The position numbers and the translations under genes are program-made. Positions 1,005 to 56,529 of a DNA stretch of 64,000 bases are shown here, piece after piece. This DNA is from Elusimicrobiota bacterium (GTDB taxonomy: Bacteria > Elusimicrobiota > UBA8919). The stretch spans positions 4,088 through 68,087 of the forward strand of contig JAQUMH010000002.1 in assembly GCA_028718185.1 (NCBI GenBank). Reading direction: 5' to 3'. Below the pieces are notes generated by a model that saw only the letters and a program-made list of their open reading frames with translations, had not been told where the DNA came from and made no database searches. Within the stretch, counting starts at the first letter, position 1; every line of letters starts with the position of its first letter.

Positions 1005-1075
1005 AAGTTTATAGAGTTTTAGAGTTATAGGGTTTTAGGGTTTTAACTCTATAACCCAATAACCCTATAACCATT
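1005..1075. repeat. tatagagttatagggtttt(t)agag repeat family, copy 1
   Basis: tatagagttttagagttatagggttttagggttttaactctataaccc. A related copy at 9440-9525 reads ttagttatagagttatagggtttttagagtttaaatcctaaaaac. Confidence 0.55.
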
Positions 1076-9439: not shown

Positions 9440-9525
9440 GAAAATTGTTTTAGTTATAGAGTTATAGGGTTTTTAGAGTTTAAATCCTAAAAACACTTTC
9501 TATAACCTTGCTTAACGAAATCCTT
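9440..9525. repeat. tatagagttatagggttttt agag repeat family, copy 2
   Basis: Shares a core of more than 20 nt with 1005-1075. Both copies are intergenic. Confidence 0.55.
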
Positions 9526-9536
9526 CTGACAACAGT

Positions 9537-32300: not shown

Positions 32301-32976
32301 CAGGAGAAGTAATTAAAACAGATAATCCACTCGGAACTGTTTTGTCTATCTTTACAGTTTGTGAATGAGTGGCTTCGCCATTACCAGTATTATCATATGA
32401 CCAATAGTAAACCGTATGCTCTCCATTAGCCCCAATTGCGAATGGCGTAGTGTAAGTTTGAGCAGACAAGTCACCATCAACCAGGTAAAGCGTTTTATTA
32501 ACTCCAGATGTTACATCATAAGCATTTAACGTTACCGTAACATCCGATTTATACCAACCATTTTCGCCGAATGTCCCTGATAAATTACAAGTTGTTGATG
32601 GCGAATATGTATCAAGGGTTATGCTATCATTTGTACTTCCTATATCAGTTGGGGAATAAGTAGTTACAAACACTTTCATATATACCGTTTTATTGCCATC
32701 TCCACTGCCTCCACCGTAAGCAGTCAAGTCCCAGCTGTATTTTATAGAACTTATTCCTTCCCAAGGGGACCATGACGAATTGTTGTTACTGAATATCATC
32801 CATTGAGCATCGGACGGTATATTACCGATGGTTAGCGTTGTGTATTTATAATTTGTATAATCAGCACCCGAGTTGATGTTCAAAGTTAAACCTATTACTC
32901 TTTGAGCGAAAGAAAATAAAAATACAAAACCTATAAAACATCTTAGTAAATAATAAAATTTAAATTTTTTATACAT
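20398..32976 (-). CDS. giant (4192 aa) secreted multidomain cell-surface protein with a T9SS-type C-terminal sorting domain; putative adhesin/S-layer-like protein with an embedded zincin motif
   Basis: N-terminal signal peptide (MYKKFKFYYLLRCFIGFVFLFSFAQRV). HEFFH...NEAT...E zincin-like motif near aa 525 (nt about 31384-31398). Many Ig-like, FlgD-Ig-like and fibronectin-III domains. Three near-identical about 245-aa repeats of FN3 plus a CBM4/9-like domain (nt about 21300-23720). C-terminal about 85 aa (VYPNPYKPN...GVYIYQIRDATGRKKTGKVGLIK) matches the Por_Secre_tail (TIGR04183) pattern. Confidence 0.7.
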   Translation of the reverse strand: MYKKFKFYYLLRCFIGFVFLFSFAQRVIGLTLNINSGADYTNYKYTTLTIGNIPSDAQWMIFSNNNSSWSPWEGISSIKYSWDLTAYGGGSGDGNKTVYMKVFVTTYSPTDIGSTNDSITLDTYSPSTTCNLSGTFGENGWYKSDVTVTLNAYDVTSGVNKTLYLVDGDLSAQTYTTPFAIGANGEHTVYYWSYDNTGNGEATHSQTVKIDKTVPSGLSVLITSPGTGFTNNRIITLALLASDATSGVAKMQFTEDSNNWPSTWEDYSISKSYYINSTGEGAKTIYFRVKDYAGNISSFVSTSIILDETKPTVVSFNPPDQNQGENETITINVTVSDTIQLEKIVVIPEIGPAKEQYVNGTNDTKSFDNINLRQGINHIMIQVWDVAGNVSNIKDVYYTYGVYKTTNFKFHFRAYTISNPDVNQVNSAGWQSHNGIPDYVYNFGQYFEYSWNQIVKPGSYGYESPPSEYFVIENKLPVYILNLGNGAYGSTAYKHPILGSIIQVDNDYIGDKFYTHGTDAMQITSAHEFFHAVKCSYNPRDDNYWWNEATSVWMEDEIYPNVNDYLQYLKGFAGKPSWFANSTQSLDYINDWNEYGSCIFAKYFSERFNEKDIIRQIWDICKTTDSLSAIDSELISGHGTSLSNEFKTFTVWNYDASKYYIEGNSYPKITVLDTSAKYQYPSGVNTVMHLASHYFEFRPAPDKPTPQTLLLNFDSSVVTPLWGGKVLKVKMDGTIEEQNDLNKTGNTVSISNFDTTCSKVIVIPSNTDAFANNLDYSLIAMIPPNFTVEYFADSNLTQPLATYTGKPITKAQTIYLKITASEQLSANPTFSIDAPGTVNDKTEVATILVSGNVYKGEVNIVSGPGVEGMVSVTISGKDIGENIATNVTPTIGKEFMIDVTPPIGSLLIRDTFAPLENFTGSQQVSLYSTVSDNSEVGWMQFSYDGIIFIGDWIEYTHIYSPWWLTAGAGNKTVWARYKDKAGNISIVEIKDEIYLDTTDPEMPSGPAKAPRFAGGAYSSSTTVTFTWEGDFATDMESGISNFNIAIYNSITDSLIAQADVPNSQTNYTVDGLIHGQSYFAKVRAQNGAGRWSAWLTGGSVMIDTTSPMCVSINDGLYTNNNTQLSCNWSFTEDISGIVEYQYAIGTSQYPNTGWYNIIALTSTGTLSNITRTFDSPLDDGIYYFTVKAKNGAGSETPVSSDGIIVDTTPPDKPQSLSVSPSGWTNQTQFTISWSTPSDLSGIAGAYYKLNTEPANYIPNTQTFTSNFSVVEGNNILYIWLKDNAGNTDYTKNATVTLRYDITPPDITSYSCLAFSPNGDGIKEATTIDYTLSDNFSTVIKTTIKIYDLQNNLVRTLIDSISKNIGANLDIWDGKNTNGVVVAEGIYKCKITAVDEAENLKVYEGDIIVDITPPQVSNGSIYINPGAYSHNIFTKNDKSVDISFDIFDRFSPSAKVSFTFTSGTRLFTKVTDFVVTPNITQNLLYAWDGTDALGNTASDGEYTLGLKATDESGNIGNTIPILQTFKIDRTPSFVTTLYTNIQIFNPELKNDTVTAYYKISDNATVEVAVEDILGQIVRSPISEVKQKDVLYSYTWDGKKQDNSFASDGSYVIKIKTTDEVGNKAEETVNVIKNQIPAQIVSPVFNGIVGNQVEIVGIAIDPVVNDNIDFLCYKVWYATYSNATPDNYISPDMNVWKSIPVPVSNQSPNDVNYPNSNASYRAILNSTLAYWDVSSLPNGTYTILLVAQDSAMPSNYSAITVSVKVDNTIPETDKPILNITAPISDQVFNITTINDKLNISYTLMQNTGKKSNVVLDIFKMVDVNTFGPVILHSEYFNKTAGETIQWDGKDFRKQYVQNGIYRIQLTAVDIDGLGMDKKSVSVNVNVTITEPLKITKFESDKSDVLLNEPVQITYELTKAATVYITIYDTVGNLVKMVDNEFTSGLTEYTTVWSSIVEGLYTCKIDVIAVDDQTKGSASVSIAVIGGPGSGLAEITSPAPYSVNQGSSNFNWSATVKKGEYYSPQSFSATVQTHAAQSWIQTSQQDFGQGGISNIDLNSESGNVKICTKKYDDISTFYNGQKTPTLIIADNKVQFSQYVVDAIHEQYDDISGNYPLAPSSSWTNANDRNDSTLVWPAWAGYGNTWAFVCGRSGPPQGVPPIYPWHYKFYRLRVVGSVAVWHKDGNNCGANIYLQYGNSSNGPWTTYKYWSQVVSHGSSINISFDEEVPTPFYAPYFKILVQPHNSNHGAYLFLNSIEGYQKRYENTGVFISQEHDTYSYSPIWNLFQTSDENNVGYLGGAHITYRIASYNSSGENINWEAAPIVENGVVPSLGQKRYFKWRADFATRDLQTTPVIYNVTQNFGLVGTLISQAHDCKTAPSSWRNFEVSEYKPSGTNITYTTQTSDDGYSWESERTATPGQPIYSTPRKYIRWKATLSTNDGSKTPVLREVKINANYEPSVTVNNTCYNGHDTYNSIEEIRIPYDYIPSSSPYTFVTQTNPKVLKTIVEERGLLELKATTNEKESWDMTTDDQGLPEHKIISKNNEFNNSGNNLQADFVIEGPFEPTVADRYRPITISAAYPLVNMNNPDEIKNKYTFWKQNGTTIDNPYVWIDADNYDTQKQWDIKLQYPDGTMCNDLVVDKKLTKASNTDSNDINDDFTVKISTDEAAPKRFVEIKGSAFGSDFKGYSMFYQKTGDTILKTIPVISTQPVSNNTLSFWDVSGLNGEYKIKLYVFAGNGVKEIEQTVYVGKQVFPGEHKYVSAPWNKAYLEFYTDSLLQPTTVSITPVKLSDTDIIVDTGMPLPLGALFDMEPKDIQFNKDGNGKLVAPAVLTVRFLPEEVTNVDIGKLTAYHVDSNGKVKPTTLTSLGWKKDASGKNDIFEVSCEVVGFSQYLIIPQVPIPEFDANISTITNQQYITITGVVEAVADVTVYNDGASLKTVKADSNGRFSAEISLSEGANPIFAKTTRWFNNIPFDSPKSKITSITRDTTLPQITNLSVSAAVISPDGARIKSEISFVLSKESVINVEIYNNDVLTRALISNLAVPAGNYSCEWDGKNTIGQNVSSGTYTCKVNIIDLAGNASSATTEFEVMSDTTPPIMTNVASSDITWNSAVINWLTNEPSDSQVEYGLTTSYGNSSVLDTVKVTNHSVNITGLTSGTVYHYRVKSKDTAGNLATSEDNSFTSDINFISNHSFELGTSSWTFYTEEAGSFVTTSPGFDGSKSARCTIIKSTGNLQLYQKDIVLNPNTRYRLTFTAYSNTGRDMTLHVFKHGTPYTNYGLSNYLANLTTTWQTFSTEFVTTGFSSVVTDARLMFWYAPYAVAGDVYYVDDVHLETVPPDTTPPIIVSVTSCDITWNSALVNWITNEPSDSQVEYGLTTSYGNSTVLSTVKLTNHSANITGLMPGTVYHYRVSSRDESGNFSTSEDNTFTSDINFISNHSFESGTTSWAFYTEEAGSFVTTSPGFEGSKSARCTITKSTGNIQLYQTGICLNPNTRYKLTFTAYSNTGHDMTVRVFKHGTPYTNYGLDNYLANLTTSWQTYSTEFVTTGFSSVVTDARLMLWYAPYAAAGDVYYVDDIHLETVPPDTTPPIITSVTSSNITWNSAVINWLTNEPSDSQVEYSTTTLYGISTTSDTTKVTSHSVNITGLTLGTTYYYHVTSKDGSGNIATSENYTFSTLSTSSGTNHVINAGFESGTDSWAYYAGGGGTFISTTPGFEGAKSAKCTITAANGNIQLYQTGICLNPNTRYRLIFTAYSPTRHAVTVHLLKHGTPYTDYGLNYTANLGTSWQTFTTEFITTGFTAPVTDGRFRFWFTPYATAGDTYYIDDVRLETVTGLATPPKPIIKYSNTLKSYYYEDGPTLDTASLDPAITVSSLKFKAQVYNTNDNNPTTDYSGTLTLSTKNSKTGILNVADAILTKEDTGEREISIPFNSEIETVSVTGDSMLPTLTNINDMYLAKPIGNNGGMIKGVNKLKIIVSENVLTETRNLAVIKTKTPAVVRNAARYVDTVKPISYDFGRLSFTNKTSVLEEDIFTKPISITIPYTLVDIGELKEEGLRIYSWNGREWELVPGVHIVDKLNKTITANVKRFTTYRILGSYLATDLSNVKVYPNPYKPNMAVGGKLKVINLPINSEMKIYTVSGELARELKEADFGNLGWLEWDGKNDDGDKVARGVYIYQIRDATGRKKTGKVGLIK
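21300..23720 (-). repeat. intragenic triple tandem DNA repeat (about 740-bp unit) encoding FN3+CBM-like modules of the giant protein
   Basis: Near-identical segments recur with about 740-bp period, e.g. gtctcaag(a/g)tg(t/a)acatcgtctacgtaatacacatc.cctgct.ctgcatatgg at about 21490, 22245 and 22980. Confidence 0.7.
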
Positions 32977-34260: not shown

Positions 34261-35262
34261 TCACTCGCTTCCAAAACTATAACCAATTGATACTCTTTGG
34301 TTTGGGTTAAGTGTTTCAACCAAACCAATCCCATAATCAACTTTTAATCCTTTCATTTGGAAACCTGCGCCAAGAGTAACCTTATCAATATCATATCCTA
34401 CTTTATAGCCAAATCGCAGAAATACTGTTTCTTTGAAACTATACTCAATACCAATGTTTTCCCTTATATTACTTTCATTTGGTTTAACTGTGTCAATGGC
34501 AATCAAAAAACTGTGATTTTGTAATACCGTTTTATTATATGCTATTCCTAACCTTATGTTCATAGGAAGTGCGTCTCCCTGTTCAATGTACTTCAGTTTT
34601 GTCCCTACATTTTGAACAGCAAGTCCTGTTGAAAGTCCATCAACGGTTGTATAATATAAAATACCAAAATCCACTGCATATGCAGTCCCTGAATATGTTT
34701 CTACAAGTTTGGATGAAAGATACTTTGCAGTTAACCCTAATGAAAAATTATTGAAAATTTCTTTGCCATAACCTATTGTTCCAACTATATCCTGCTGTGC
34801 TTTAACATTCCTTGAAGTACCATCAAGATTATTCCATTCAAAATTACCACCATCATAATAAAGAAAACTTGCTCCAAAACTGCCTATTCCATTTGATGGC
34901 GTTCCTACCCATCCAACTAAACCGTAATTTTCATCTACTCTGCCTTTTAAATACATACTCGCTATTTCATTACCTTCTATATTTACCAAACCTGCCGGGT
35001 TATAATAAAGTGCATTTGTGTCATCACATACAGCAACAAACGCTTCACCCATACCTACAGTTCTGGCACTTACTGTCTGATTTAAAATCCTTGCACCGGA
35101 GGTACCAGAACCAGCATAAAGACAGGAAGTAGGGAGTAGGAAGTAGGAAGTGGTAAAGGCAATAAATAAAACCAGAGATTGCCACGAGCCAATTGACATC
35201 GGCTCTCGCAATGACTTCCTTTCTAAAATTTCTCTAAACATAACACACATCCTAAACATCAA
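34261..35262 (-). CDS. outer-membrane beta-barrel protein, PorP/SprF-like (type IX secretion cargo-attachment family); true start probably internal
   Basis: 333 aa. Signal peptide, then LYYNPAGLV (NPAxaG-type motif near the N-terminus), alternating amphipathic beta-strand pattern, aromatic C-terminus. The size fits PorP/SprF. It lies between two CTD-bearing cargo genes. The 5' end overlaps a MITE fragment and ggaagtagg direct repeats, so MSIGSW... may be the true start. Confidence 0.45.
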   Translation of the reverse strand: MMFRMCVMFREILERKSLREPMSIGSWQSLVLFIAFTTSYFLLPTSCLYAGSGTSGARILNQTVSARTVGMGEAFVAVCDDTNALYYNPAGLVNIEGNEIASMYLKGRVDENYGLVGWVGTPSNGIGSFGASFLYYDGGNFEWNNLDGTSRNVKAQQDIVGTIGYGKEIFNNFSLGLTAKYLSSKLVETYSGTAYAVDFGILYYTTVDGLSTGLAVQNVGTKLKYIEQGDALPMNIRLGIAYNKTVLQNHSFLIAIDTVKPNESNIRENIGIEYSFKETVFLRFGYKVGYDIDKVTLGAGFQMKGLKVDYGIGLVETLNPNQRVSIGYSFGSE

Positions 35263-39244: not shown

Positions 39245-40285
39245 CTATTGTTTGTATTTTTTAGGTAGGCAGAACTTTTCTATAAAAGTGATTTTTTGTT
39301 CTTTTGTGAAATATTTTAGGAGTTTTTTTAAGCGTTTTTCAACAGGTTCTTGTTTTGGAGAGATTGCTGAGATATTCAAACTATTATCAATGATTTTCAA
39401 AATACCCCGCTTTTTAAATTCTTCCAGGATTTTTTTGGCTTTTTGTTCTTCCAGTGCTTTTACAAATTCATCCCTTATACGCGGTGCTGAAACCAGTGTT
39501 AGCAAGTTTCTCTTTATTGCAGATATCATCCATTTTTCTGTATTTTTTTCAAGCTTAAAACCAAAACGATGAGCATACCTTATTGCCCTTAGAATTCTGG
39601 TTGGGTCATCTATAAAACTGTTACTATGAAGCACACGAATTTGTTTTTTTTTAATGTCTTCTAAACCACCGTGTAAATCAATAATGTTATTAATTGCCAA
39701 GTTAGATTGCTTCGTCGCTCTGCTCCTCGCAATGACTACACTCTTTTTGTCATCGCGAACCGAAGGTAAAACAATCTCATAAACTTTGAAATTCCTAAAC
39801 ATCAAGTTAGATTCCCACTTTAGTGGGAATGATGAATCTTGGGAAAGCGGAAAGGCGAGGGCGTTGATTGTGAAATCACGGCGGAATAAATCGCTTTTCA
39901 AATTAGACGGGAAAACAATCGGCATTGAAGCGGGGGTTGGGTATTTTTCTGTTCTTGCTGTTGCAATGTCAATTACAAAACCATTTTTTAGCTTAAGGGA
40001 TGCTGTTAAGAATTTTTTATATATGTTAAGTTTTCCGCCGAGTTTTCCATGAATAACTTTTGCAACAGCTAATCCATCACCTTCTACCACCAAATCCAAA
40101 TCAATACTTTTTAGACCTAATACTTTATCACGAACATATCCGCCAACAATATAAATTTTACAATTAAATTGTTTTTCTGTTTTTCTTATAATTTCTACAT
40201 AATTATTGATTTTATTAAACCCCATATAAAACTCAGTCCTACTACAAGAATGGCAGAACCAATTATTGAACCTATTGTCAAACAT
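39245..40285 (-). CDS. cca: tRNA nucleotidyltransferase / poly(A) polymerase family (CCA-adding enzyme head domain) carrying an in-frame repeat-element insertion
   Basis: GGYVRDKVLG and RRDFTINALA motifs are present. About 50 extra residues sit between NALA and IIDLHGGLED. The likely true start is MGFNK (about 40225). The 5' end overlaps the downstream-oriented gene 40195-40659. Confidence 0.7.
   Translation of the reverse strand: MFDNRFNNWFCHSCSRTEFYMGFNKINNYVEIIRKTEKQFNCKIYIVGGYVRDKVLGLKSIDLDLVVEGDGLAVAKVIHGKLGGKLNIYKKFLTASLKLKNGFVIDIATARTEKYPTPASMPIVFPSNLKSDLFRRDFTINALAFPLSQDSSFPLKWESNLMFRNFKVYEIVLPSVRDDKKSVVIARSRATKQSNLAINNIIDLHGGLEDIKKKQIRVLHSNSFIDDPTRILRAIRYAHRFGFKLEKNTEKWMISAIKRNLLTLVSAPRIRDEFVKALEEQKAKKILEEFKKRGILKIIDNSLNISAISPKQEPVEKRLKKLLKYFTKEQKITFIEKFCLPKKYKQ
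39695..39855. mobile_element. MITE copy inserted in-frame inside the cca coding sequence
   Basis: The insert carries the modules catcaagttagattcccactttagtgggaatga (cf. 44054-44088), gagattgttttaccttcggttcgcgatgac and gtcattgcgaggagcagagcgacgaagcaatct (cf. 3589-3679, 60920-60953). It is translated as FPLSQDSSFPLKWESNLMFRNFKVYEIVLPSVRDDKKSVVIARSRATKQSNLA without a stop. Confidence 0.65.
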
Positions 40286-43975: not shown

Positions 43976-44004
43976 TTATCCTCCTGTATTTTATCTATAT
44001 GAAC

Positions 44005-44230
44005 AAATTAGGCACGCCAAGGGCGTGCTACTACAAACATTGATATTCTTATTCATCAAGATAGATTCCCACTTTCGTGGGAATGACACGCCATGATAGA
44101 TTGTCATTCCCGAGTGTCTCAATCGGGAATCCACAACATCGAAATTCTTATGCATCAAGTTATGCCCGCCACTGAACCGTTGGCGGGCAACGACAAAAAC
44201 ATTGTAGTGGCAGAGCTTTGCAACTATATT
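44005..44230. repeat. mosaic of at least five palindromic repeat modules in the pilT / DUF2851 spacer
   Basis: ggcacgccaagggcgtgctactaca (44010-44034); catcaagatagattcccactttcgtgggaatgaca (44054-44088); tgtcattcccgagtgtctcaatcgggaat (44102-44130); gcccgccactgaaccgttggcgggc (44163-44187, reverse complement of the hairpin in the 3589-3679 MITE); cattgtagtggcagagctttgc (44200-44221). Confidence 0.7.
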
Positions 44231-45766
44231 TTACTGCGGCAATAGTTCGCTCATCGACATATTAAAGATTGACTGAAAACTGCAATTAGTACATATTCCT
44301 TTCTTTATGTCGCAAAAATCTTTAAATATTTGTAAAAGTCCCTGTTGAAAACGCTCGCCCCGTCCCGTAATATCTCCAAAACCTATTTTCCACGAAGTAA
44401 GCCGTGCCGTCCGGTTAGTTGCTATTATAGGTTGTTTTAACCACCACTGATAAATAATTTTACCATCTTTTAATGTCTGAATTTTTGCAATCGCCAAAGG
44501 TAAAAATACATTTATAAGTATCAGCAGATTTCTTTCTTCTCCGATTAAAGCAACAGGTTTTAAAAACTTTTTTGAATTAAATGTAGTTCTGAAAAACCAA
44601 AAATTAAAAGAATCGGCAGTATCTATTTTAATCTCTTTTAAGAACTCCTTTAACTTCAAGTTACCCGAGATAATCTTATCGTAAAAATCCTGGAATATTT
44701 TATCAAAACCATTATTGATATGTTTAGAAATAACCAGACTCGCAGCAGCTAAACGACGATATGGAAAATTATATGGTCTTATTCCCCTGAATTTCCAGGA
44801 CTCTTTTTTAATTATTTCACCCGGTAAAATCTGCTGTCTCAGGACCTTCCATATTTTCTTTATCTTTAATACATATTTTTCAGCTTCATCATCAAGCTTT
44901 TCCATCTTGTCTATTTCCGGAATAAGACCGCATACTCCATAAAACAGTGCCTGAATTCTAATTGGTTTTTCTTCAAACTTTTCTAATTTAATTACTTTTT
45001 CTATCCGCTCAAGCGGTAATATCTCAGCCAACTTCCTGAAATTTTCCCTGTTCTGACCGTAACCAAGCCCGCCAATAATACCTTTGTAAACTATTTGATT
45101 TATTGATTCGCTTGACATTCTTCTTTTAAGCTCTTCACTTTTAAGTTTTATCCTTTCATCCCCGGCAATGCCAATTATATGTTCCAATAATGAATATTTT
45201 CTAAAAGAGAATGCAGCACATTTGCCGGCACGAACTTTGCTTGAATAAGGATAATTTTCAACATCAAAATCGCTATTTATGATTTCCAAATCATCATTTA
45301 CATAATCAATCAATTCAAGAGAGGGAACTGCGCCTTTATTTTGAGTAAGTGTCTTTGATAATTTACTGCTTTGCCATAAAAAGACATGCAGGATAACATT
45401 ATTAAAATTCTTATTTTTATAATGATTATGCTTTTTCCAGTATAAGGAATAAATATCAACCTCAATGTCACCTGTTATCTCCTGACCATCGATATTTATT
45501 TTAGCGTTCTTAAAATCAGGTCCCTCATCAAAATTCCACTCGCCCGGCGAGACTATAACAATATTTTTGCCGGCGATTGTTTTCAAACCTCTTCTTTCAA
45601 TCTTTTGGTCAAACCATATCATTTTTACAAGTTTTTCAGTAACCGGTTGTTTGTCCTTATTATATAATTTTTCAGGTTCACGAATAGACAAGGATTCGTA
45701 TAATTTCTTATATTTATTTGAGAAATCCTGAGGATTATGATATTTTACTTCATCAATATACTTCAT
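44231..45766 (-). CDS. DUF2851-like hypothetical protein
   Basis: 511 aa, soluble. The N-terminal segment EKLVKMIWFDQKI resembles the DUF2851 N-terminal motif. No catalytic motif was recognised. Confidence 0.3.
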   Translation of the reverse strand: MKYIDEVKYHNPQDFSNKYKKLYESLSIREPEKLYNKDKQPVTEKLVKMIWFDQKIERRGLKTIAGKNIVIVSPGEWNFDEGPDFKNAKINIDGQEITGDIEVDIYSLYWKKHNHYKNKNFNNVILHVFLWQSSKLSKTLTQNKGAVPSLELIDYVNDDLEIINSDFDVENYPYSSKVRAGKCAAFSFRKYSLLEHIIGIAGDERIKLKSEELKRRMSSESINQIVYKGIIGGLGYGQNRENFRKLAEILPLERIEKVIKLEKFEEKPIRIQALFYGVCGLIPEIDKMEKLDDEAEKYVLKIKKIWKVLRQQILPGEIIKKESWKFRGIRPYNFPYRRLAAASLVISKHINNGFDKIFQDFYDKIISGNLKLKEFLKEIKIDTADSFNFWFFRTTFNSKKFLKPVALIGEERNLLILINVFLPLAIAKIQTLKDGKIIYQWWLKQPIIATNRTARLTSWKIGFGDITGRGERFQQGLLQIFKDFCDIKKGICTNCSFQSIFNMSMSELLPQ

Positions 45767-45769
45767 ATA

Positions 45770-45865
45770 AACGCTGATTGCCGCTGATGATTAACCGAAC
45801 GCTGATGACCGCTGATTCCGGTAACGCTGATTAACACTGATTCTGATTAAACAAACGCTGATTAA
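45770..45865. promoter_or_regulatory. irregular array of about 8 direct CGCTGAT heptamers abutting the start codon of the DUF2851 gene
   Basis: cgctgat occurs at 45772, 45782, 45799, 45810, 45825 and 45856, with degenerate copies at 45835 and 45843. The array starts 5 nt upstream of the ATG (reverse complement at 45764-45766). Confidence 0.5.
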
Positions 45866-46020
45866 TGCAGATAAAACAACCCGATTCTTAAGTTTACCTT
45901 CCCTATATTGAGCGAGGAAGAAATTTCTGAAGAGCCTGAATTTGCGACCTATACCCAACAGGAGCAAATGTTAGAGCGACCTCAAGGGAGCGTCTCGAAG
46001 AAATTTGCTTCCGAGCGAAT

Positions 46021-46617
46021 CTATTTTTTTACTTTAGGCTTTGGTTTCTCAGCTGGTTTATCATTTGGCTTGTCATTTGGTTTTTCAACATAAACCTTTC
46101 TCATTATATCACCGATTTGTATTTTATGAACAACATCAAGTCCTTCTATAACCTGCCCAAAAACAGTATATTGACCATCTAAAAACGACTGTGGACCAAG
46201 ACAGATATAGAATTGACATCCGGCAGAATCAGGAGATTGCGCTCTTGCCATCGCTACAGTTCCGTCAAGATGTTTCCTTTTGTTAAACTCTGCTTTTATC
46301 TTATAACCCGGGTCACCGGTACCATCACCTTTTGGACACCCGCCCTGAATTACAAATCCCGGAACAACCCTGTGGAATTTTAAACCATCGTAAAACTTTG
46401 CATTAGCAAGCTTTTTAAAGTTTGCAACAGTGTTTGGTGCATCTTGTTCGTAAAATTCAAATTTTATTACCCCTTTATCCGTTTTAATTACAGCAATTTC
46501 TTTCATCTGCTTTTTCTCCTTTCCACAAAGATTATTAAAAACCAAACCTGTAAAACTAAAAATCATCAAACCTATTTTAAACTTTTTCCACATTCCATTC
46601 TTCACTATCTGATTCAT
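46021..46617 (-). CDS. secreted cyclophilin-type peptidyl-prolyl cis-trans isomerase with a Lys/Pro-rich C-terminal tail
   Basis: 198 aa with a signal peptide. Cyclophilin motifs [15 protein letters not shown] and [10 protein letters not shown]-terminal tail [20 protein letters not shown]. Confidence 0.85.
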
Positions 46618-47093
46618 AATTCCTCCTCATTTTTAATAAACTCGACCAATTCATCAAGCCCAAAAAATACTTCAATTTTATAATCCGCTAAAAACATATT
46701 GTCTGATTTCTGTTTAACTGTCTCGTAATCGATTTTTGCTTTTTCTCTTAATTCGTCGCGATTGTCTTTACAGTCGTGATTATACACATAAAACAAATAT
46801 CGTTTTTTTTCATCATGATACAATAGAAATCTTTCCCAGTAGAAAAGTAACCCACAATATGGACAAACGACTACATTCAGCAACCCGTTTAACATCATCT
46901 CTTTTAAATCGGGGTCAGTAGTAACGTTTATGGAATCCCATAAATCCCATTCGAATTCCTTTCCACAGGAACATTCAACATTTTGCTTATTGCTGTATGA
47001 CATATATGCGGAATTATATAAAAAAAATATTAAAAAGTAAAATAATAAAGTTCCCCGCAGCAAACTGCGGGGTATCAAATTGCCACCCCGCAC
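46614..47093 (-). CDS. CpXC domain protein
   Basis: 159 aa. CSCGKEF...VVVCPYCG gives two CxxC pairs with the CpXC spacing. Confidence 0.55.
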
Positions 47094-47191
47094 AGTTTTG
47101 TCGTAGACAAAACTAGACGTGGGGGTTCTCCTTTCCTTATCCCCGTCAAGTGAAACTTGACGGGGTATTTGCTGAAGGAGAATAAAAAAAT

Positions 47192-50100
47192 TTATTCTAT
47201 AAGCCGTTTAAAATAATCTTTTATTATTGTTTCATATTTTTGCGGATATTTTTGTCTGAGTGATTCAATTATTGATTCCCTGAATTCTTTTGGCGGCTTA
47301 TATTCGTCGATTGAAGGTATTTTTACGAAACCTTCCCTGAACCCCGTATAACCGCCTTCTTTATTACCTCTATTCCCGCGTGTTCTAAATTTACCACCCA
47401 TCCCCATTGAACCTTTGCCCCCCATACTACTCGCCTGTCCCATTTGACTTAAAGCGCCTTCTAACCCCTCTTTACCACTTAACAAATCATTGAGCGCTTT
47501 TTTTTCAAAATCAACTGCTGACGGGTCATTGGCGTTTGAAAGTTCATCACTAGCCGAACCCATCGCTTCCTGGGACGATAAAATCTTTTTGGCAGCATCT
47601 GACGGTATGGAAAGCGTCTTGCTTAATATTCCAAGGACTTTTTTGTGCAGTAATTGTGCCTGTTTTTGATTTAATTTTTGTGTTTTTGACAGTTGATTAT
47701 GCTTTTCTAAATCGTTTTCTGTAAAAATACTTGTTTTTGGCGGTGCAAATTTCTTCAATTCATTAAGAATCTCCTGTTCAATAGTTTTGCTTGATAAAAC
47801 ATATTCAGCAGATTTTTTAATATTTACATTTTTGGATATATTTTCAAGTTCCGCTATTATTGTTATTAATAATTCATTTGACTTTTCAATTTTTTCATCG
47901 GTAAATTCCTTTAAAACAATTCCCATCTGGGTTTCAGGCTGGACATAAAGATTAAAAACAGACGGATGTGTTGTTGTGCTTTTTTCAATAATTGTTTTTG
48001 AATCGTTGAGTCTGGACATTGCCAATTTCTGTTTTTCTACAAGTTTTTTAAGCAATTCTTTTTGCAATGACAATATCTTCTTTGCCCGTTGCATGTCCAA
48101 TTCCTGAGTACTATTCAAAATCTTCCGCTGTTCTTCTACTATCTTGTCCAGGTCATTAAGCGATTCTTCTGTTTCCTTTTGAAGTTTCTGCTGTGCACTG
48201 CTTGTTGTTGAATTTGAAGAATTTTCCATTGTATTAAGGATATCGGATATTTGCTTGCTGAGTTTTTCAGCAAGCTCTATCGCTTTATCAATATTACCGG
48301 ATTGAAGAGACCACTTCATTTCATCTGCTGCCGATCTCATTTCAGTAAGATCTATTTTTTTCACATTCTCATCGTTTGCAAAATCTTCCGGTAATTTTTG
48401 CGGCATTTCTGAAACTTTTTTTGATAATTCTTCCATCAGCTTGGAAAGTTTTTCATTTGCTTCCTGAAGTTTTTTCATCTTTTCCGGATCTGAAAAATTT
48501 TTCATATCTTTAAGATTTTGTTCTATATCTGACGAAGTATCCGCCATATCTCTTACAGTGGAAAGCATATCTTCCATTTTTTGTTTTTTAGCAATATCTT
48601 CTGAAAATACACCCAGTCTTTTAAGTTCTTCTATTATTTCATCCTGTACCCGTTCCGCATTATCATATTGTTTATTAGAAAGCGAATCCTCAGCTTCGTT
48701 CATTTTCTGTTCCCCGATTGTCTTTGCCGCTTCAAGTAAATTTTTATACTCTGAATATGCATTATAATCAGTTAACGGATCGTTTGCCATTTTTTCCACT
48801 GTCTTACTGAATTCATCTGTTGCTTTATTCATTAACTCCTGTGCATTTTTCTGCATATTAGCAGCATTTTCAATATCACGTTTAGCAAGTGATGTTCTGC
48901 TCTGAAGCTGTCTGGATAATATTTCCTGCAATTTCCTATTGAAATCAGATATTTCATCTTCTATAATTTTGTGTTCCATTTCATATGACATAACCTCAAT
49001 ACTATATGTTTTTGAATTTCCGGTTAAATGAGCAGGATAAATATTATTATCTGCAACTTCAAGACGATATTGGATTACATCGCCCGGTTTCAACCCCAAA
49101 TCAGCTACTGATATTTCATAATCATCTAATATTTTCTGTGTAGGTTTTATAAATGATTTTATTTTCACCTGTTTTTTAAGCGTTAAATAGTCTATATTGA
49201 TTTCTGATATCCCGAAATCATCTTCTGCGGAATAGATAATTTTTAATTTTTCATTTTCCGAAACTATAATATCGCAGGCAGGAGCAACTATTTCAATAAC
49301 AGGCGGACTGTTTTTAGTTACGCTAACCTTGTACTTCACGGGTTGCCTGTAGATATCCCCGTCAATAGAAACTGCTTCTATCCAGTATTCAGTTTGATTT
49401 TGTATTACAAATTGGGAAGTAATTAGATTTTTAGAAATATCCATTTTATTTTTTTCATTCATATCGGTTATCAAAAATGCTTCTTTGGCTTTTTTATTTG
49501 TCTGTGCAGTGATTTTAACCGTAGTACCTACCGGCGCTTCTATATCGCTTTCTTCAACAATTTTGTCCGGTAATCCTATGTATGAAGGATATATATATTC
49601 AAGTTTTATATCAGCGATTGTAAACGGCGAAGTTATTTTCACATCATACTTATGTGATTTATTGTCCAATACTACGACATAATATTCTGTATTATCTGTT
49701 ATTTTTTCAATAGCCTCCGCATATTCGCCTTTACCTGTTTTTTTCATTTTCTTTTTATGCCATTCACTGTTAGCTTCTCTAAAATAAAGATATGGCGTTG
49801 ATTTGTCAGGTTTAACAACTGCACGAATATTCACATCACTACCAAGATTAACTGAAATATCTCCTGGCAAAACTGCAATTTCCATCGCCGAAAGAAAAGG
49901 TATTAAATATCTTTTTAATTGAAGTGAATTGAAAAATAAAGCAAAATTCACCAGGAAAATTAAAAATACAATGATAATATTTTTCAATGGTTTGAAATCT
50001 GTGAATTTTTTTAATAAATCCTTAGAAATTTTTGATGATGTGATTCTTACGAATTCTTCGGCAAATAACGATGATGTTTCGGAATATTTATTATTTTTAA

Positions 50101-52292: not shown

Positions 52293-52300
52293 ATATTAAG

Positions 52301-52396
52301 AAACACGAATTATCACGAATGTTATGACACATCACGAATTTATCACGAATATTCGTATCCTATTCGTGATTTTTTGGTTATTCGTGTTCATTCGTG
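52301..52396. promoter_or_regulatory. palindromic array of heptamers (4 x CACGAAT then 4 x ATTCGTG) abutting the start codon of the PMT_2-like gene
   Basis: cacgaat occurs at 52304, 52314, 52332 and 52344; attcgt(a/g) at 52351, 52362, 52379 and 52389. The symmetry centre is acgaatattcgt (52345-52356). The array begins 9 nt upstream of the ATG (reverse complement at 52290-52292). Confidence 0.5.
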
Positions 52397-54568
52397 TATT
52401 TGAGCGTTTTTCCTTGCCATGTAAAGATATTTCTGGGCATCGATATTGTTTGGATTGATTTTTAGAGTTTTTTCAAGTTCTTCAATAACTTTATCCCATT
52501 TATTAAGACGCCAATATGCCACTGCCATATTATAGTGTGCATCCATATAATCGGATTTAATTTTGACTGCTTCGTTATATTCGGAAATAGCTTCATTAGT
52601 TTTGTTTTGTTTTTCATAAATAGTCCCAAGATTATTATAAACAATTGCCCAATCGTAAAGAATTGAATCAACCACTTCCGGAAAAGACTTATATTCAATT
52701 GCATCATTGTACATTTTTGTATAATATTTTATTGATTCCTTATAGTAATACTCGGTTTTTTCTAAATCATTTTTTTGATAATAAAGCCAGCCGAGATTAT
52801 AATATATAGAAGGATAATCTTCTTTTATTGATATTGCTTCATTAAATTTTATTATTGCATCTTTTTCTTTATCTTCCCTCATAAAGAAAAGACCTGCTTT
52901 GAACAAAGAATCGGCATATTGTGAGATAATTTTCTGTGTAAAAAAATCCGGATATGCAGATGCATTGAGAACGCTTCTCTTTATGTAAAATTCCACAAAA
53001 TTAACCGGCTTATCAAATACTGTTTTTATATCTTTTACCTGAAAAACCAGCCCATAAGGATAAACATAATATTTCTGACCAAGCATTTCGTAATCTTCAA
53101 CATCACTTGTAAAACAGACATTCCTGTTTTTATTGAATATATAAAACTGGGAAAATGTATCCGGATTATTTAATGAAAAAACATCCGTATTTTTATATTT
53201 TTTTAACGTTTCCTGATACCATTTACTTCCCGAAAGTCCTTTTGCTATAACTGTAATATCATTACGTTTATTTTCCACATACTGTAAATACCATTCTGAA
53301 AAAACCTGAATATCTTCTCTTGATATAATTATTGAATTGGCCGGAAGAGACCTGAAAACGTTCCTTGCAAAATCGTATGCAGTAAAATTATTACGCATAT
53401 TTTGTTTACCTATATTTAATGTAAATAACCATATTGGAATTATTAAAAAAATAATAGAAACCGTTTTTAACTTTCGGGACACAAAATATATCCCGAAACC
53501 AAACCACAAAGCAAGCATTAAATCAGAAATTAAATAGTGCGGTTCCACAATTGCAAGTGCATACGGGTTAGGCGGCATTTTAGCAATTGTAATGAAAAAA
53601 GGTCCTGTGATAATGTAAATCATTAATGTTGATATCAAAAAATCCTTTTTTGCTTTATACAAATATAAAAATCCAAAAAATACTATCGGAATACCAATAA
53701 TGGTAAATAGATTAAAAGTTCTTTCTAAATAGACCTTCATTCCCGAGTAAAAAACATCACTGATTTTATATCTTGTGGAGATTAAATCCAATGTTTTCCC
53801 GTGCGTTTTACGGGTAATTGTATCCATTACTGTCTGTATATTATCGGGTTTATTCCAATTTAGATATGGCTGAGTTTTTGACCTTGCAGGCAAAAATGCA
53901 AATATAGAAAAACCAAGAAAAAACAGAATTACATAAGTAATTATATTTTTAATTGAAAAAAGGTTTTGTATTTTACTCTTTACAACCCAATATAAAATCC
54001 CGGGAACAATTAAAATTATCTCAATACGGTTGCCTGTCGCTAGCCCTAACAGGAAAGAAACGAGTAACAAGTAACGAGTAGTGAGTAATAAATAAATTAT
54101 CAATACAATAAAAAAGATGTTTAGAGTATACATTTCCGCGACTACTGAAACAGACCATAAGGTCTTGGAAAAAGCAAAAATAAGAACAGGTAAGCAGGCG
54201 GATAATAAGAAAGCGGGATTGTGCGATTGTGGGATTGTGGAATAGAGAGAGTGCGGGATTGCGGGATTGTGGGATTGCGGGATAGAAAAAGAACAGGTCA
54301 ACTGCTTTATAATCAAATATATGATACTACAAGTTAAAGCGCCAAAAACAGCACTCATGCAGTTTACACGATAGGCTATATTTCCGAATGGAATTAAAAT
54401 TGTAAAGATTTTTCCAAGAACCACATATAACGGATACCCGGGCGGGTGAGCTATTCCATACTTGTAACAAACAGATACCATCTCTCCTGCATCACGATAG
54501 ATTGCAACCGACGGGAACAATGTATAAACAAACACCCAAAATGTTAATAAAAACAAGAAATAAATCAT
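52388..54568 (-). CDS. DUF2723 (TMEM260-like GT-C fold putative protein O-glycosyl/mannosyl-transferase) fused to C-terminal TPR repeats; paralog 1
   Basis: 726 aa. N-terminal YRDAGEMVSVCYKYGIAHPPGYPLY, a DUF2723 hallmark shared with paralogs 2 and 3. At least 10 TM helices. An in-frame IPQSHNPA-type repeat encoded by 9-bp gggattgtg/gcgggattg repeats (54211-54285). C-terminal TPRs. Confidence 0.55.
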   Translation of the reverse strand: MIYFLFLLTFWVFVYTLFPSVAIYRDAGEMVSVCYKYGIAHPPGYPLYVVLGKIFTILIPFGNIAYRVNCMSAVFGALTCSIIYLIIKQLTCSFSIPQSHNPAIPHSLYSTIPQSHNPAFLLSACLPVLIFAFSKTLWSVSVVAEMYTLNIFFIVLIIYLLLTTRYLLLVSFLLGLATGNRIEIILIVPGILYWVVKSKIQNLFSIKNIITYVILFFLGFSIFAFLPARSKTQPYLNWNKPDNIQTVMDTITRKTHGKTLDLISTRYKISDVFYSGMKVYLERTFNLFTIIGIPIVFFGFLYLYKAKKDFLISTLMIYIITGPFFITIAKMPPNPYALAIVEPHYLISDLMLALWFGFGIYFVSRKLKTVSIIFLIIPIWLFTLNIGKQNMRNNFTAYDFARNVFRSLPANSIIISREDIQVFSEWYLQYVENKRNDITVIAKGLSGSKWYQETLKKYKNTDVFSLNNPDTFSQFYIFNKNRNVCFTSDVEDYEMLGQKYYVYPYGLVFQVKDIKTVFDKPVNFVEFYIKRSVLNASAYPDFFTQKIISQYADSLFKAGLFFMREDKEKDAIIKFNEAISIKEDYPSIYYNLGWLYYQKNDLEKTEYYYKESIKYYTKMYNDAIEYKSFPEVVDSILYDWAIVYNNLGTIYEKQNKTNEAISEYNEAVKIKSDYMDAHYNMAVAYWRLNKWDKVIEELEKTLKINPNNIDAQKYLYMARKNAQIHE

Positions 54569-56529
54569 AATCTTTTTTTAGCTATTTCCAGATAATTTTT
54601 CACATCAGCTCTTTCCGGATTTATCTGTAAAACTTTTTCAAATTCTTCCACCACACCCTGCCAGTTTTTCATATCCCAGTATAAAGCTGCTAAACTATAA
54701 TGTGCATCTTCATAATTTGGGAATATTTCAATGGCATTTTTAAACATTAATATCGCCGTATTTTTTTGATTAGTTTCAATATAATACTTTGATAATGTAA
54801 GATAATAAAAATAAGCTAAAATAGCATCACGAAACCTCGAATACTTTCCTCTTAATGCATAAATATAAGAAAAATCATGTTGAGGCATTTCCTTGTTAAG
54901 TGAATATAAAAGCCCTGCATTATAAAATTTCATATCACTGAAATAATCAGGATTTTCAGCTAAATAATAAGTGCTTTTCCCGCTATCTAAAATCATTTTT
55001 CTTTCAATCGGCAACCTAACCATCCGCCTTTCACTACCCTTAATCCAATAATACCTATCACCATATATGTTGGGAAAAACACTTGCATTACAGTCAAAAA
55101 CATCTACTGTCGGCCTTCTTTTTTCAACTATTTTCTGATATGCAAGAATAAATACAGATTCATCTGCTTTATCCAGAAAAAGCAATGAGTTATTTGAAAC
55201 AGTTTTCAAAATATTTTTGCCGAGGTCAAACGGGAAGAAATTGTATCTTAAATTGTTTCTTTGAAAGTTTGCCGAAAACTGGAAAACCAAAAATCCTGTT
55301 ATAAAAATATAAGCCACGAACGTGCAAACCGCTTTATGGTAAACCCAGGTTGTTTTATCGACTATATACTTTACCCCCATACCAATCCATATTGCGAATA
55401 TTATTACTGAAGGTATGTGAAAGGGTTCGAGCAGGTCTCTCGTAGAATCATCTACAGGTTTATTAGCCAAAAACATAAAAATTGGTCCAGAAAAAAAGAA
55501 GATTAAAAATAGAAACCAAAAATATTTCTTTTCTTTTTTATAATTATAAATAAAACCGGTAATTCCTAAAATAGATCCAAAGACAGTAAATGAATCTACG
55601 ATATTTTTAATATATTCCCAAAGCTGCTGCATCAGCAGAGGCAGGGGTCTAAATAAATATCCCCCTTTCTCTTCAATATGCATTACACCGCCGTATCCTA
55701 TCCTGAAAACTACTCTTAAAAAATTTATAAACTTACCGGGATTGTCCCAATTGGCTATCGGATTTTGGCGGGAACGAATAAACAAATATAAATATAGTGA
55801 AAAACCAAGTAAAAAAAATAGCGTCCAATGTCCGATGTCCCTGCCCCGTGGCAAGGCGGGCGATGTCCAATGTCTTAAAGGTTTATTTTGAACTGAGTTT
55901 GCTCCGCTCAAAACAGGATACTTAGGACTTTGGAGTATTAAATATAACATACCGGGAAATAAAAGTACTAGTGTATGGTGGTTACAAAGCCCTAAACCGA
56001 ATAAGAAAGAAATGAGTAACGAGTAACGATTAACGAGTAATAAATAAATAATCAATATGACAAAAAACGCGTTTAATGTGTATATCCCGCCTTTTGTCTG
56101 GACACATTGAGACCAAAATATATTAGAAAAAGCTAAGAAAAAGGCGGATAAGAAAGCGGGAAAGCGGGAAAGTGGGAAAGCGGGATTGTGCGATTGAGAG
56201 ATAGCGGAATCGTGGGATTGTGCGATTGTGGGATTGTGGGATAGAGGGTCAGCGGACGAGCTGGTAAGATGCTTCATTAACAAATACATTATACCGCAGG
56301 TTAATGCTCCGAAAAAGACGCTCATGCAATTTACACGATATGCTATGTTTCCATAAGGGATTAAAATTGTAAATATCTTCCCAAGCAACACATACAACGG
56401 ATATCCCGGCGGGTGACTAATACCCAAAACGTACGAAGAAGTTATAAGTTCGCCACTATCGCCTGTACATACAGTAGGTGAAGAAGTGAATAGTAATATT
56501 CCTAAGTTTATCAAAAATACTATTATCAT
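54565..56529 (-). CDS. DUF2723 + TPR membrane glycosyltransferase-like protein; paralog 2
   Basis: 654 aa. CTGDSGELITSSYVLGISHPPGYPLYVLLGKIF. VNTR region 56155-56250 (gcgggaaag/gggattgtg units encoding SHNPTIAQSHDSAISQSHNPAF). C-terminal TPRs. Confidence 0.55.
   Translation of the reverse strand: MIIVFLINLGILLFTSSPTVCTGDSGELITSSYVLGISHPPGYPLYVLLGKIFTILIPYGNIAYRVNCMSVFFGALTCGIMYLLMKHLTSSSADPLSHNPTIAQSHDSAISQSHNPAFPLSRFPAFLSAFFLAFSNIFWSQCVQTKGGIYTLNAFFVILIIYLLLVNRYSLLISFLFGLGLCNHHTLVLLFPGMLYLILQSPKYPVLSGANSVQNKPLRHWTSPALPRGRDIGHWTLFFLLGFSLYLYLFIRSRQNPIANWDNPGKFINFLRVVFRIGYGGVMHIEEKGGYLFRPLPLLMQQLWEYIKNIVDSFTVFGSILGITGFIYNYKKEKKYFWFLFLIFFFSGPIFMFLANKPVDDSTRDLLEPFHIPSVIIFAIWIGMGVKYIVDKTTWVYHKAVCTFVAYIFITGFLVFQFSANFQRNNLRYNFFPFDLGKNILKTVSNNSLLFLDKADESVFILAYQKIVEKRRPTVDVFDCNASVFPNIYGDRYYWIKGSERRMVRLPIERKMILDSGKSTYYLAENPDYFSDMKFYNAGLLYSLNKEMPQHDFSYIYALRGKYSRFRDAILAYFYYLTLSKYYIETNQKNTAILMFKNAIEIFPNYEDAHYSLAALYWDMKNWQGVVEEFEKVLQINPERADVKNYLEIAKKRL

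Follow-up and report, generated by a model that had tools for sequence, protein, structure and literature searches.

In the 64-kb stretch of an Elusimicrobiota metagenome-assembled genome analysed here (contig JAQUMH010000002.1, GCA_028718185.1, 34% G+C; hereafter the window), nine heptamers of the ATCAGCG type form an array directly upstream of the start codon of a DUF2851 gene. With a little better than even confidence, we favour the reading that this array represents one arm of a phased-heptamer repeat class, expanded and unpaired, which was made and homogenized by duplication or slippage, is dispensable for DUF2851 and is not a device specific to that gene. The array appears to be one local case of phased short-word repeats (mostly 7 nt, with a period of about 10 nt) that fill spacers and tolerant protein loops throughout the clade, and a gene-specific role is probably lacking.

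Array coordinates refer to the plus strand; the nearby genes all lie on the minus strand, and in gene sense the array word reads ATCAGCG. The sequence and a pattern search gave exact plus-strand copies of CGCTGAT at 45772, 45782, 45800, 45810, 45825 and 45856, and inexact copies at 45835 (CACTGAT, one mismatch), 45841 (TTCTGAT) and 45866 (TGCAGAT, two mismatches in each of the last two). The original prediction of about eight heptamers, six of them exact, starting 5 nt from the DUF2851 ATG is thus borne out, with six exact and three inexact words in 45772-45872 and the nearest word ending 5 nt upstream of the ATG. The start codon is correctly called because the DUF2851 N-terminus (MKYIDDVKFHNP, consensus MKYID(D/E)VK(F/Y)HNP) is conserved in orthologues. 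Six exact words are far above the approximately 0.0025 expected in 95 nt of one strand (P(≥6) ~4e-19). Counting both strands, the window contains nine copies of CGCTGAT, three of them isolated copies beyond the array, against 3.43 expected from dinucleotide shuffles, and none of 100 shuffles reached nine; the frequency therefore lies far above what base composition predicts, which was the comparison first proposed.

The start-to-start distances of the words are 10, 18, 10, 15, 10, 6, 15 and 10 nt. The range of this series (6-18 nt) is close to the 8-17 bp first described, but the spacing is not truly irregular, as four pairs of words each keep a distance of exactly 10 nt (45772/82, 45800/10, 45825/35 and 45856/66). 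One such pair occupies each copy of a higher-order unit of about 28 nt, which a repeat finder detected in four copies spaced by 28, 25 and 31 nt and 66-79% identical (modules A to D, Table 1). The window word fits the pattern ATNNGYG, and its 10-nt pairs come as doublets, not triplets. The words are not head-to-tail and are separated by variable gaps of 3-11 nt; Tandem Repeats Finder (TRF) reported a period of 10 (2.1 copies) and a period of 15 (2.8 copies) with 71-90% match, and no perfect head-to-tail run of units in the array. Words of 7 nt with such gaps also differ from clustered regularly interspaced short palindromic repeats (CRISPR), which are 24-48 nt long with unique spacers of similar length; a CRISPR array is excluded, in agreement with the earlier assessment. 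The identical array is present in a separate Logan assembly made from run SRR22315506 and is therefore not an assembly artefact of a single record.

Comparative evidence for the favoured reading comes from 13 junctions, the window's own and 12 orthologous ones (L-numbers below denote related loci or contigs compared with the window). Relatives with 49-70% identity in DUF2851 keep the gene order CpXC, cyclophilin, DUF2851, PilT. Four of the 13 junctions lack the array, and the word differs in most others. Three junctions (L008, L012 and L133) have no spacer at all, the cyclophilin and DUF2851 genes overlapping or abutting, and the spacer of L462 contains no repeats. Because spacer and array are both absent where the genes overlap or abut, they are dispensable, and the orthologues without a spacer presumably express DUF2851. 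Absence from orthologous promoters with unchanged expression, which the original prediction had named as evidence against a regulatory role, was thus found in its first half, at these four junctions. Where repeats are present, L005 carries two copies of ATCTGCGtaATCTGCG (ATCTGCG word) ending 9 nt from the ATG, L007 carries the ATCTGCGtaATCTGCG module twice, split by a 78-nt hairpin insertion, and L461 carries two copies of ATCACCGTAATC (ATCACCG word), preceded by a pair of ATTACAGTGAT in inverted orientation. The junctions of L002, L003, L004 and L010 have three-fold CACAGAG / CTCTGTG arms, and single remnants are left in L009 and L460. The last word lies 5-17 nt from the ATG in all array-bearing orthologues. 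The word varies between genomes by one or two bases and is identical in all copies inside each genome, a pattern that concerted evolution through duplication and recombination would be expected to leave, and a conserved operator would not. The most distal word of the window, ATCTGCA, still has the T of the L005/L007 word.

The proposed search for other CGCTGAT clusters, to be matched with gene functions, gave no second cluster in the window, and among the relatives just one further ATCAGCG cluster was found, 9 nt ahead of the unrelated scpB gene in L007, where four copies of ATCAGCG are preceded by four of CGCAGAT that pair with them imperfectly. A single-protein scan of metagenome contigs found no strain-level relatives, and a profile scan for relatives added only one close locus, L133.

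Several junctions also contain insertions. In L002-L004, direct copies of the right arm stand on both sides of an inserted PDDEXK_3 gene; in L002 (7462-7945) this gene encodes 121 aa and lies between two 35-nt direct copies of the CTCTGTG arm. The 78-nt hairpin of L007 (9920-10035) likewise lies between two ATCTGCGTAATYKGCG modules. A tblastn search found the PDDEXK_3 gene only in L002-L004 and L032, and a general link between this gene and the arrays was rejected on that distribution. At a different array, L002 (13005-13077) and L003 (6589-6633), which encode an identical DUF2851 protein, lose synteny exactly at ATTCGTG repeats, downstream of which L003 has approximately 6 kb of other genes. 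Arrays may therefore serve as recombination or insertion breakpoints. Inside the DUF2851 orthologue of L007, a GGGGGATAA nonamer array (10445-10494, 5.3 copies) adds a GDKGDKGDK-like insertion.

The array is not an isolated case in this clade. TRF was run on 179 kb, comprising the window and the related loci, with block shuffles as control. Arrays of period 7 numbered 36 against 1.5 in shuffles, those of period 8 numbered 14 against 1.1, and periods 9 and 10 gave 7 against 0.7 and 5 against 0.3. Intergenic DNA makes up 10% of the bases and holds 15 of 46 arrays. Nearly every site has its own unit, so that dozens of words are in use, and the arrays occur in both orientations relative to genes. 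Many are arranged as inverted pairs, which fold into long periodic hairpins at, for instance, window 52296-52400 and 62020-62140, L002 7458-7540 and L010 9936-10042. Others lie in frame inside genes, the same loop carrying different units across genomes. The lineage thus seems to make short-unit arrays wherever they are tolerated. Folding 18 array pairs in sense and antisense revealed no consistent strand asymmetry, and this test therefore cannot separate an RNA function from a DNA function; only 22 palindromes were usable for a tally of G-U against A-C mismatches.

The inverted pair at window 52296-52400 is a complete two-armed element in which four copies of CACGAAT are followed by four of ATTCGTG; its fold is predicted at -32 kcal/mol. 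The element takes up the whole spacer between two genes of the same strand and stops 12 nt short of the downstream ATG, and its word ATTCGTG is the one that gives the commonest (word N3)x3 module in the viral contigs described below.

Under the favoured reading, segmental duplication, slipped-strand mispairing or unequal recombination would have generated the array and would keep it homogeneous by concerted evolution. It would descend from the start-proximal arm of a two-armed phased-heptamer palindrome, a form that persists in L002, L010 and L461 and at the scpB site of L007. The second arm would have decayed in the spacer between cyclophilin and DUF2851, which is 254 nt long and is filled by the array in its 3' ~100 nt. 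The remaining 5' half has no homologue among the related loci and contains, on the gene strand, a 108-nt stretch with four copies of CGCTC (45910, 45974, 45988 and 46013; approximately 0.04 expected), a cluster that may be the decayed complementary arm. A pattern search found no inverted partner in the form of a CGCTGAT array nearby on the gene strand. Ahead of the ATG, the gene strand of the spacer showed no sigma-70-like promoter, the promoters of this phylum being uncharacterised, and no terminator-like site was found there. The array would be co-transcribed with the upstream gene in a polycistronic mRNA, as a leader of about 100 nt that is unstructured and lacks a Shine-Dalgarno sequence, and at most it may uncouple translation of DUF2851 from the upstream cistron. 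Canonical two-armed elements are expected to form hairpins of about 30 bp, which makes a part in RNA processing, in stability control or as a terminator-like element plausible for them; the unpaired window array, as modelled, could not form such a hairpin. A structured-RNA reading of the array was rejected, since the gene-strand folds of the spacer and its halves did not exceed shuffled sequences in stability (z -0.2 for the spacer and -1.1 for the array). An Rfam E-value scan of 44000-48000 gave only chance-level matches in the array (archaeal C/D-box models, E > 1).

Phased modules were also sought beyond the clade, in a genome collection with one genome per species and in viral contigs. Triplets of ATCAGCG with loose gaps (1-10 nt) were abundant in both among the matches listed. 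The permuted control with loose gaps was likewise abundant among the matches listed for viral contigs, and the bare presence of ATCAGCG triplets in many phyla is therefore uninformative. The informative viral-contig scan was that for (word N3)x3 with the gap fixed at 3 nt. ATCAGCG itself, with 5 loci, was no commoner there than the permuted controls ACTGACG (5 loci) and AGCATCG (4 loci); the related clade words ATCTGCG, CTCTGTG and ATTCGTG gave 25, 16 and 42 loci. Control matches were pure 10-mer repeats with uniform spacers in 8 of 9 cases. The spacers differed in 30 of 43 ATCTGCG modules and 41 of 58 ATTCGTG modules, and were typically TYC; the third word was followed by GTT in 24 of the 43 ATCTGCG and 22 of the 58 ATTCGTG modules.

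Many of the phage modules are palindromes of the form AAC(CGCAGATgRa)3, a loop of 16-45 nt, and (ATCTGCGtYc)3GTT, sharply defined, with arms of about 30 bp and several copies per contig; the permuted controls build no such palindromes. Near-identical palindromes occur in the uncultured phage contig L471 (823-899, 5529-5633 and 7139-7244) and also in L472, L476, L480 and L519; in one contig, a Mu-like phage with genes for a portal and for protease I, their distance behind the stops of structural genes is 16-25 nt. The same architecture is found with CACGAAT/ATTCGTG in phage contigs. The genome collection yielded ATCAGCG modules with 3-nt gaps from Planctomycetota, Verrucomicrobiota, Acidobacteriota, Omnitrophota, Chloroflexota and Patescibacteria; their spacers differ in 14 of 17 modules, GTT or GTC comes next in 9 of 17, and CGCTGAT partners often lie upstream. 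The window array includes ATCAGCGgtcATCAGCGttcGGTTAA, which resembles the end of a canonical phased module: gtc followed by ttcGGTT is present only at module B (45791-45816), the other spacers being gca and tta. An Rfam scan of 20 ATCAGCG-array loci at the gathering threshold returned only a tRNA, BLAST of two canonical palindromes against isolated phages gave no match, and a full-text literature search with decamer strings found no paper.

Some of these observations weigh against an origin by duplication or slippage alone. The proximal word is exact in all four modules, and the words are far better conserved than the linkers; because the words outlast the linkers, simple neutral decay of a tandem duplication is disfavoured. 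The pairing of words at 10 nt is a geometry that suits a head-to-tail dimeric DNA-binding protein. In the viral contigs, arrays of ATCTGCG and ATTCGTG are 5-10 times commoner than the permuted controls, and variable spacers together with a conserved GTT end suggest a constraint on the words themselves, beyond slippage. Folding also gives no support for present-day pairing of the array with the CGCTC region, the decayed-arm idea being derived from the CGCTC cluster only. Word conservation over linkers, the 10-nt pairs and the privileged word set would keep a protein-binding role alive, and the 10-nt phase and conserved words between variable spacers hint at a generic nucleic-acid-binding factor for ATNNGYG words. 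A wider reading, possible though on balance unlikely, is that ATNNGYG words with 10-nt phase, free spacers and a terminal GTT form an undescribed, widespread class of elements in mostly uncultured phyla (Elusimicrobiota, Planctomycetota, Verrucomicrobiota, Acidobacteriota, Omnitrophota and Patescibacteria) and phages. Such elements would be either recognition arrays of a conserved nucleic-acid-binding or processing factor or a new mobile palindrome resembling repetitive extragenic palindromic (REP) elements, and the window array would be an expanded copy still recruiting the factor before DUF2851.

A multimeric DNA site, as the original prediction proposed, would consist of four phased di-heptamer operators for a head-to-tail dimeric regulator (for example, a winged-helix protein of OmpR/PhoB type) that controls DUF2851 and the downstream pilT. 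The four pairs separated by about one helical turn, the words conserved over varying linkers, the two di-heptamer modules kept at the same place in L005 and L007, and the ATCAGCG triplets with 10-nt phase and variable spacers in many phyla are all consistent with such a site. We nevertheless regard it as doubtful: the gene strand of the spacer lacks a sigma-70-like promoter, the operator is not needed in the three close orthologues whose genes overlap or abut, and the word changes between genomes (ATCTGCG, ATCACCG, CTCTGTG) while being uniform within each. ATCAGCG also precedes scpB in L007, some arrays of the class lie inside coding regions, and the dozens of array words in the same genomes would demand dozens of regulators. 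A binding site dedicated to DUF2851 thus receives no comparative support. Action at the mRNA level, to which we give an equally low probability, would have the AAUCAGCG words of the leader bind a multivalent RNA-binding protein (S1, a Csp-like protein or another), adjust initiation in the absence of a Shine-Dalgarno sequence, or serve as an RNase target. It agrees with the predicted unstructured leader, with an array that ends 5 nt from the ATG at the position of a ribosome-binding site, and with a last word 5-17 nt from the ATG in every array-bearing orthologue, and no Shine-Dalgarno-like or GGAG-type motif was found upstream of DUF2851. Precedents are the hypothesis for TAACTGA repeats (PMC4679880) and the Haemophilus influenzae hmw (ATCTTTC)n hairpin in the 5' untranslated region (5'-UTR), which is cut by RNase III (PMC12721329). 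However, about two-thirds of the starts in the window, DUF2851 among them, lack a Shine-Dalgarno motif anyway, DUF2851 is presumably expressed in the orthologues that have no spacer, arrays of the class run in both orientations, the window array has no hairpin, and its word forms no second cluster in the window.

Improbable in our estimate is that the array is a rearranged remnant of a small mobile palindromic element, REP-like or resembling a miniature inverted-repeat transposable element (MITE), or marks an insertion or recombination hot spot. The several near-identical palindromes per phage contig, their position between structural genes in a Mu-like phage, the insertions flanked by direct array copies in L002 and L007 and the synteny break between L002 and L003 all fit mobility, but no target-site duplication is evident, no transposase is associated (the tblastn result for PDDEXK_3 shows no general link), and a different word at nearly every Elusimicrobiota site fits generation in place better than spread from a master copy. 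A contingency locus, in which copy-number changes of a hypermutable simple sequence repeat (SSR) would switch or tune DUF2851, has a model in the heptamers upstream of the hmw genes and is in keeping with a class that is clearly unstable over evolutionary time. Phase variation is very unlikely here, however, because the array has no perfect tandem run, and the two available assemblies are identical. The resemblance to iterons of a replication origin, which the original prediction had drawn, is superficial and consists of direct repeats in non-coding DNA; we consider it hardly credible and take it to be refuted. Its units are 7 nt long compared with 17-22 nt in iterons, the site lies inside a conserved operon with cyclophilin and DUF2851 as neighbours and no initiator gene (rep or dnaA) nearby, and GC skew is negative throughout the 64 kb, with a monotonic cumulative curve, a single gene orientation and no origin-like switch.

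The preferred reading, an expanded arm of a phased-heptamer class, would place the array in a known and functionally unexplained family of bacterial heptamer repeat arrays, as a variant with new words. Heptanucleotides predominate among long prokaryotic SSRs, according to the summary of Mrazek et al. (2007) given in PMC4679880. As far as those summarised accounts go, the clade shares several traits with heptamer SSRs and with the short tandemly repeated repetitive (STRR) heptamers of heterocystous cyanobacteria: short-unit arrays are strongly over-represented in some genomes, period 7 is commonest, and the arrays are mostly non-coding and vary between relatives. The clade itself exhibits the dominance of period 7 and variation in both length and sequence at the same site between relatives. 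Unlike the SSR and STRR heptamers so described, those of the window are not head-to-tail but have 3-11-nt spacers and form ~28-nt higher-order modules; the phylum and the words are also new, and many arrays of the clade are inverted pairs.

In position the array resembles the TAACTGA direct repeats that abut start codons in marine Beggiatoaceae, cyanobacteria and Bacteroidetes, for which a role with an RNA-binding protein was proposed (MacGregor, 2015, PMC4679880). In both cases, direct heptamers in sense orientation lie a few nucleotides before the start, at the position of the ribosome-binding site and without a Shine-Dalgarno sequence, and the downstream genes share no functional theme. In contrast to the single TAACTGA word at 169 sites of one genome, each site here has its own word, only one ATCAGCG cluster is present in 64 kb, and the clade class occurs in both orientations. 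GGGAATC/GGGGATT arrays of Xanthomonas and Nostoc are flanked by the same genes while their length and sequence vary between relatives (Rehm et al., 2015, PMC4692102). The arrays of this clade are similarly kept between the same genes yet vary, and some are inverted pairs; however, those of Xanthomonas and Nostoc are G-rich and quadruplex-capable, whereas ATCAGCG cannot form quadruplexes. The GGGATTGT arrays of the window could do so, but they sit inside genes. The function of both the TAACTGA and the GGGAATC/GGGGATT arrays is left unexplained in those papers.

In H. influenzae hmw, the (ATCTTTC)n repeat of the 5'-UTR forms one arm of a long hairpin that is processed by RNase III (PMC12721329). 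Like that repeat, the window array lies between an upstream sequence and a start codon and would be transcribed, and for the two-armed arrays of the clade the hmw hairpin offers a working model. The hmw repeat, with a perfect run of at least 11 units and proven phase variation, differs from the window array, which is interrupted, unpaired and identical in two assemblies. Intergenic palindromes of the class separate genes that run in one direction and recur several times in a genome, in the manner of REP elements and bacterial interspersed mosaic elements (BIME), which can affect mRNA stability. REP elements are not made of three phased word copies, however, and no RAYT-type transposase was found near the arrays.

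For DUF2851 itself the array probably has little consequence, relatives without a spacer presumably expressing the gene. Of wider interest is that a whole clade tolerates and regenerates phased heptamer arrays at fixed positions, both in intergenic DNA and in protein loops, and that a restricted ATNNGYG word set with conserved phase and end recurs in distant phyla and phages. A demonstrated function is rare among heptamer repeats, the H. influenzae hmw repeat being the only instance among the cases considered here (PMC12721329). The phased ATNNGYG-GTT module that builds palindromes in phages and phyla may merit more attention than the array itself, and it gives a testable architecture for protein binding, RNase III cutting and array-length variation in populations.

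The array lies within a conserved row of genes on one strand (CpXC, cyclophilin, DUF2851, PilT, PilT, cNMP-binding protein and onward), and all 38 non-nested open reading frames of at least 120 aa in the window are on the minus strand. The coordinates of the array, its parts and its neighbours are collected in Table 1.

Table 1. Features of the array and of the flanking region, in window coordinates.
Feature	Position	Strand or sense	Remarks
Repeat array, nine ATCAGCG-type words	45772..45872	-	Sequence, pattern search
Di-heptamer module A, ATCAGCGgcaATCAGCG, then TTTAT, then ATG	45772..45788	-	
ttcGGTTAA after module B	45791-45799		Resembles TYC spacer and GTT terminus of canonical modules elsewhere
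Di-heptamer module B, ATCAGCGgtcATCAGCG	45800..45816	-	
Di-heptamer module C, ATCAGTGttaATCAGCG	45825..45841	-	
ATCAGTG word	45835-45841	gene sense	1 mismatch
ATCAGAA word (TTCTGAT on +)	45841-45847	gene sense	2 mismatches
Di-heptamer module D, ATCTGCAttaATCAGCG	45856..45872	-	Distal word keeps T of L005/L007 word ATCTGCG
ATCTGCA word	45866-45872	gene sense	2 mismatches
DUF2851 gene, 511 aa	44231-45766	-	ATG 45764-45766; Pfam E 1.3e-60
Non-repetitive 5' half of spacer	45873..46020	-	39-47% G+C
Cyclophilin-type peptidyl-prolyl isomerase gene	46021-46617	-	Stop 46021-46023; upstream of DUF2851

Arrays inside genes are found at several places. In the window, GGGATTGT octamer arrays at 54213-54283, 56152-56242 and 58432-58462 lie inside three tandem paralogues of TMEM260/DUF2723-like glycosyltransferases, where translation in frame gives IPQSHNPA-type loops between transmembrane helices; the corresponding loops of L007 hold different arrays. 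A single unit gained or lost would shift the frame, and these genes could be phase-variable for surface glycosylation. In the gene for a conserved nucleotidyltransferase (CCA-adding/PolyA_pol), the loop after INALAxP carries a different heptamer array in each of four relatives (L002 13889-13912, L005 10131-10163, L007 15664-15692 and L008 15333-15357), corresponding to approximately nine variable residues. The same loop in the window (~39600-39760, minus strand) has a 44-aa in-frame insertion, SSFPLKWESNLM...VVIARSRATKQSNL, which looks like translated REP-like palindromes.

REP-like intergenic hairpins occur at window 44035-44107 and 35170-35215, with the sequences GTCATTCCCACGAAAGTGGGAATC and gccacgagcc...ggctctcgcaatgac. 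The GTCATTCCCACGAAAGTGGGAATC hairpin has a sub-threshold Rfam match to FtrB (25.9 bits, E 0.36), and a hairpin resembling those of the window is present at L002 18609-18660. An inverted AGTTTTAG/TAACCCTA array (window 1006-1072) lies 7 nt from the ATG of tsaD, and a related array of AGTTATAG lies at 9452-9530. An AGGAAGT array is found at 35124-35151, and GTCCGAA followed by GACATTG at 62029-62133; the words GTCCGAA and GGAAGT recur at other sites of L003, L007, L010 and L012. A single open reading frame of 4192 aa spans window 20398-32976 on the minus strand.

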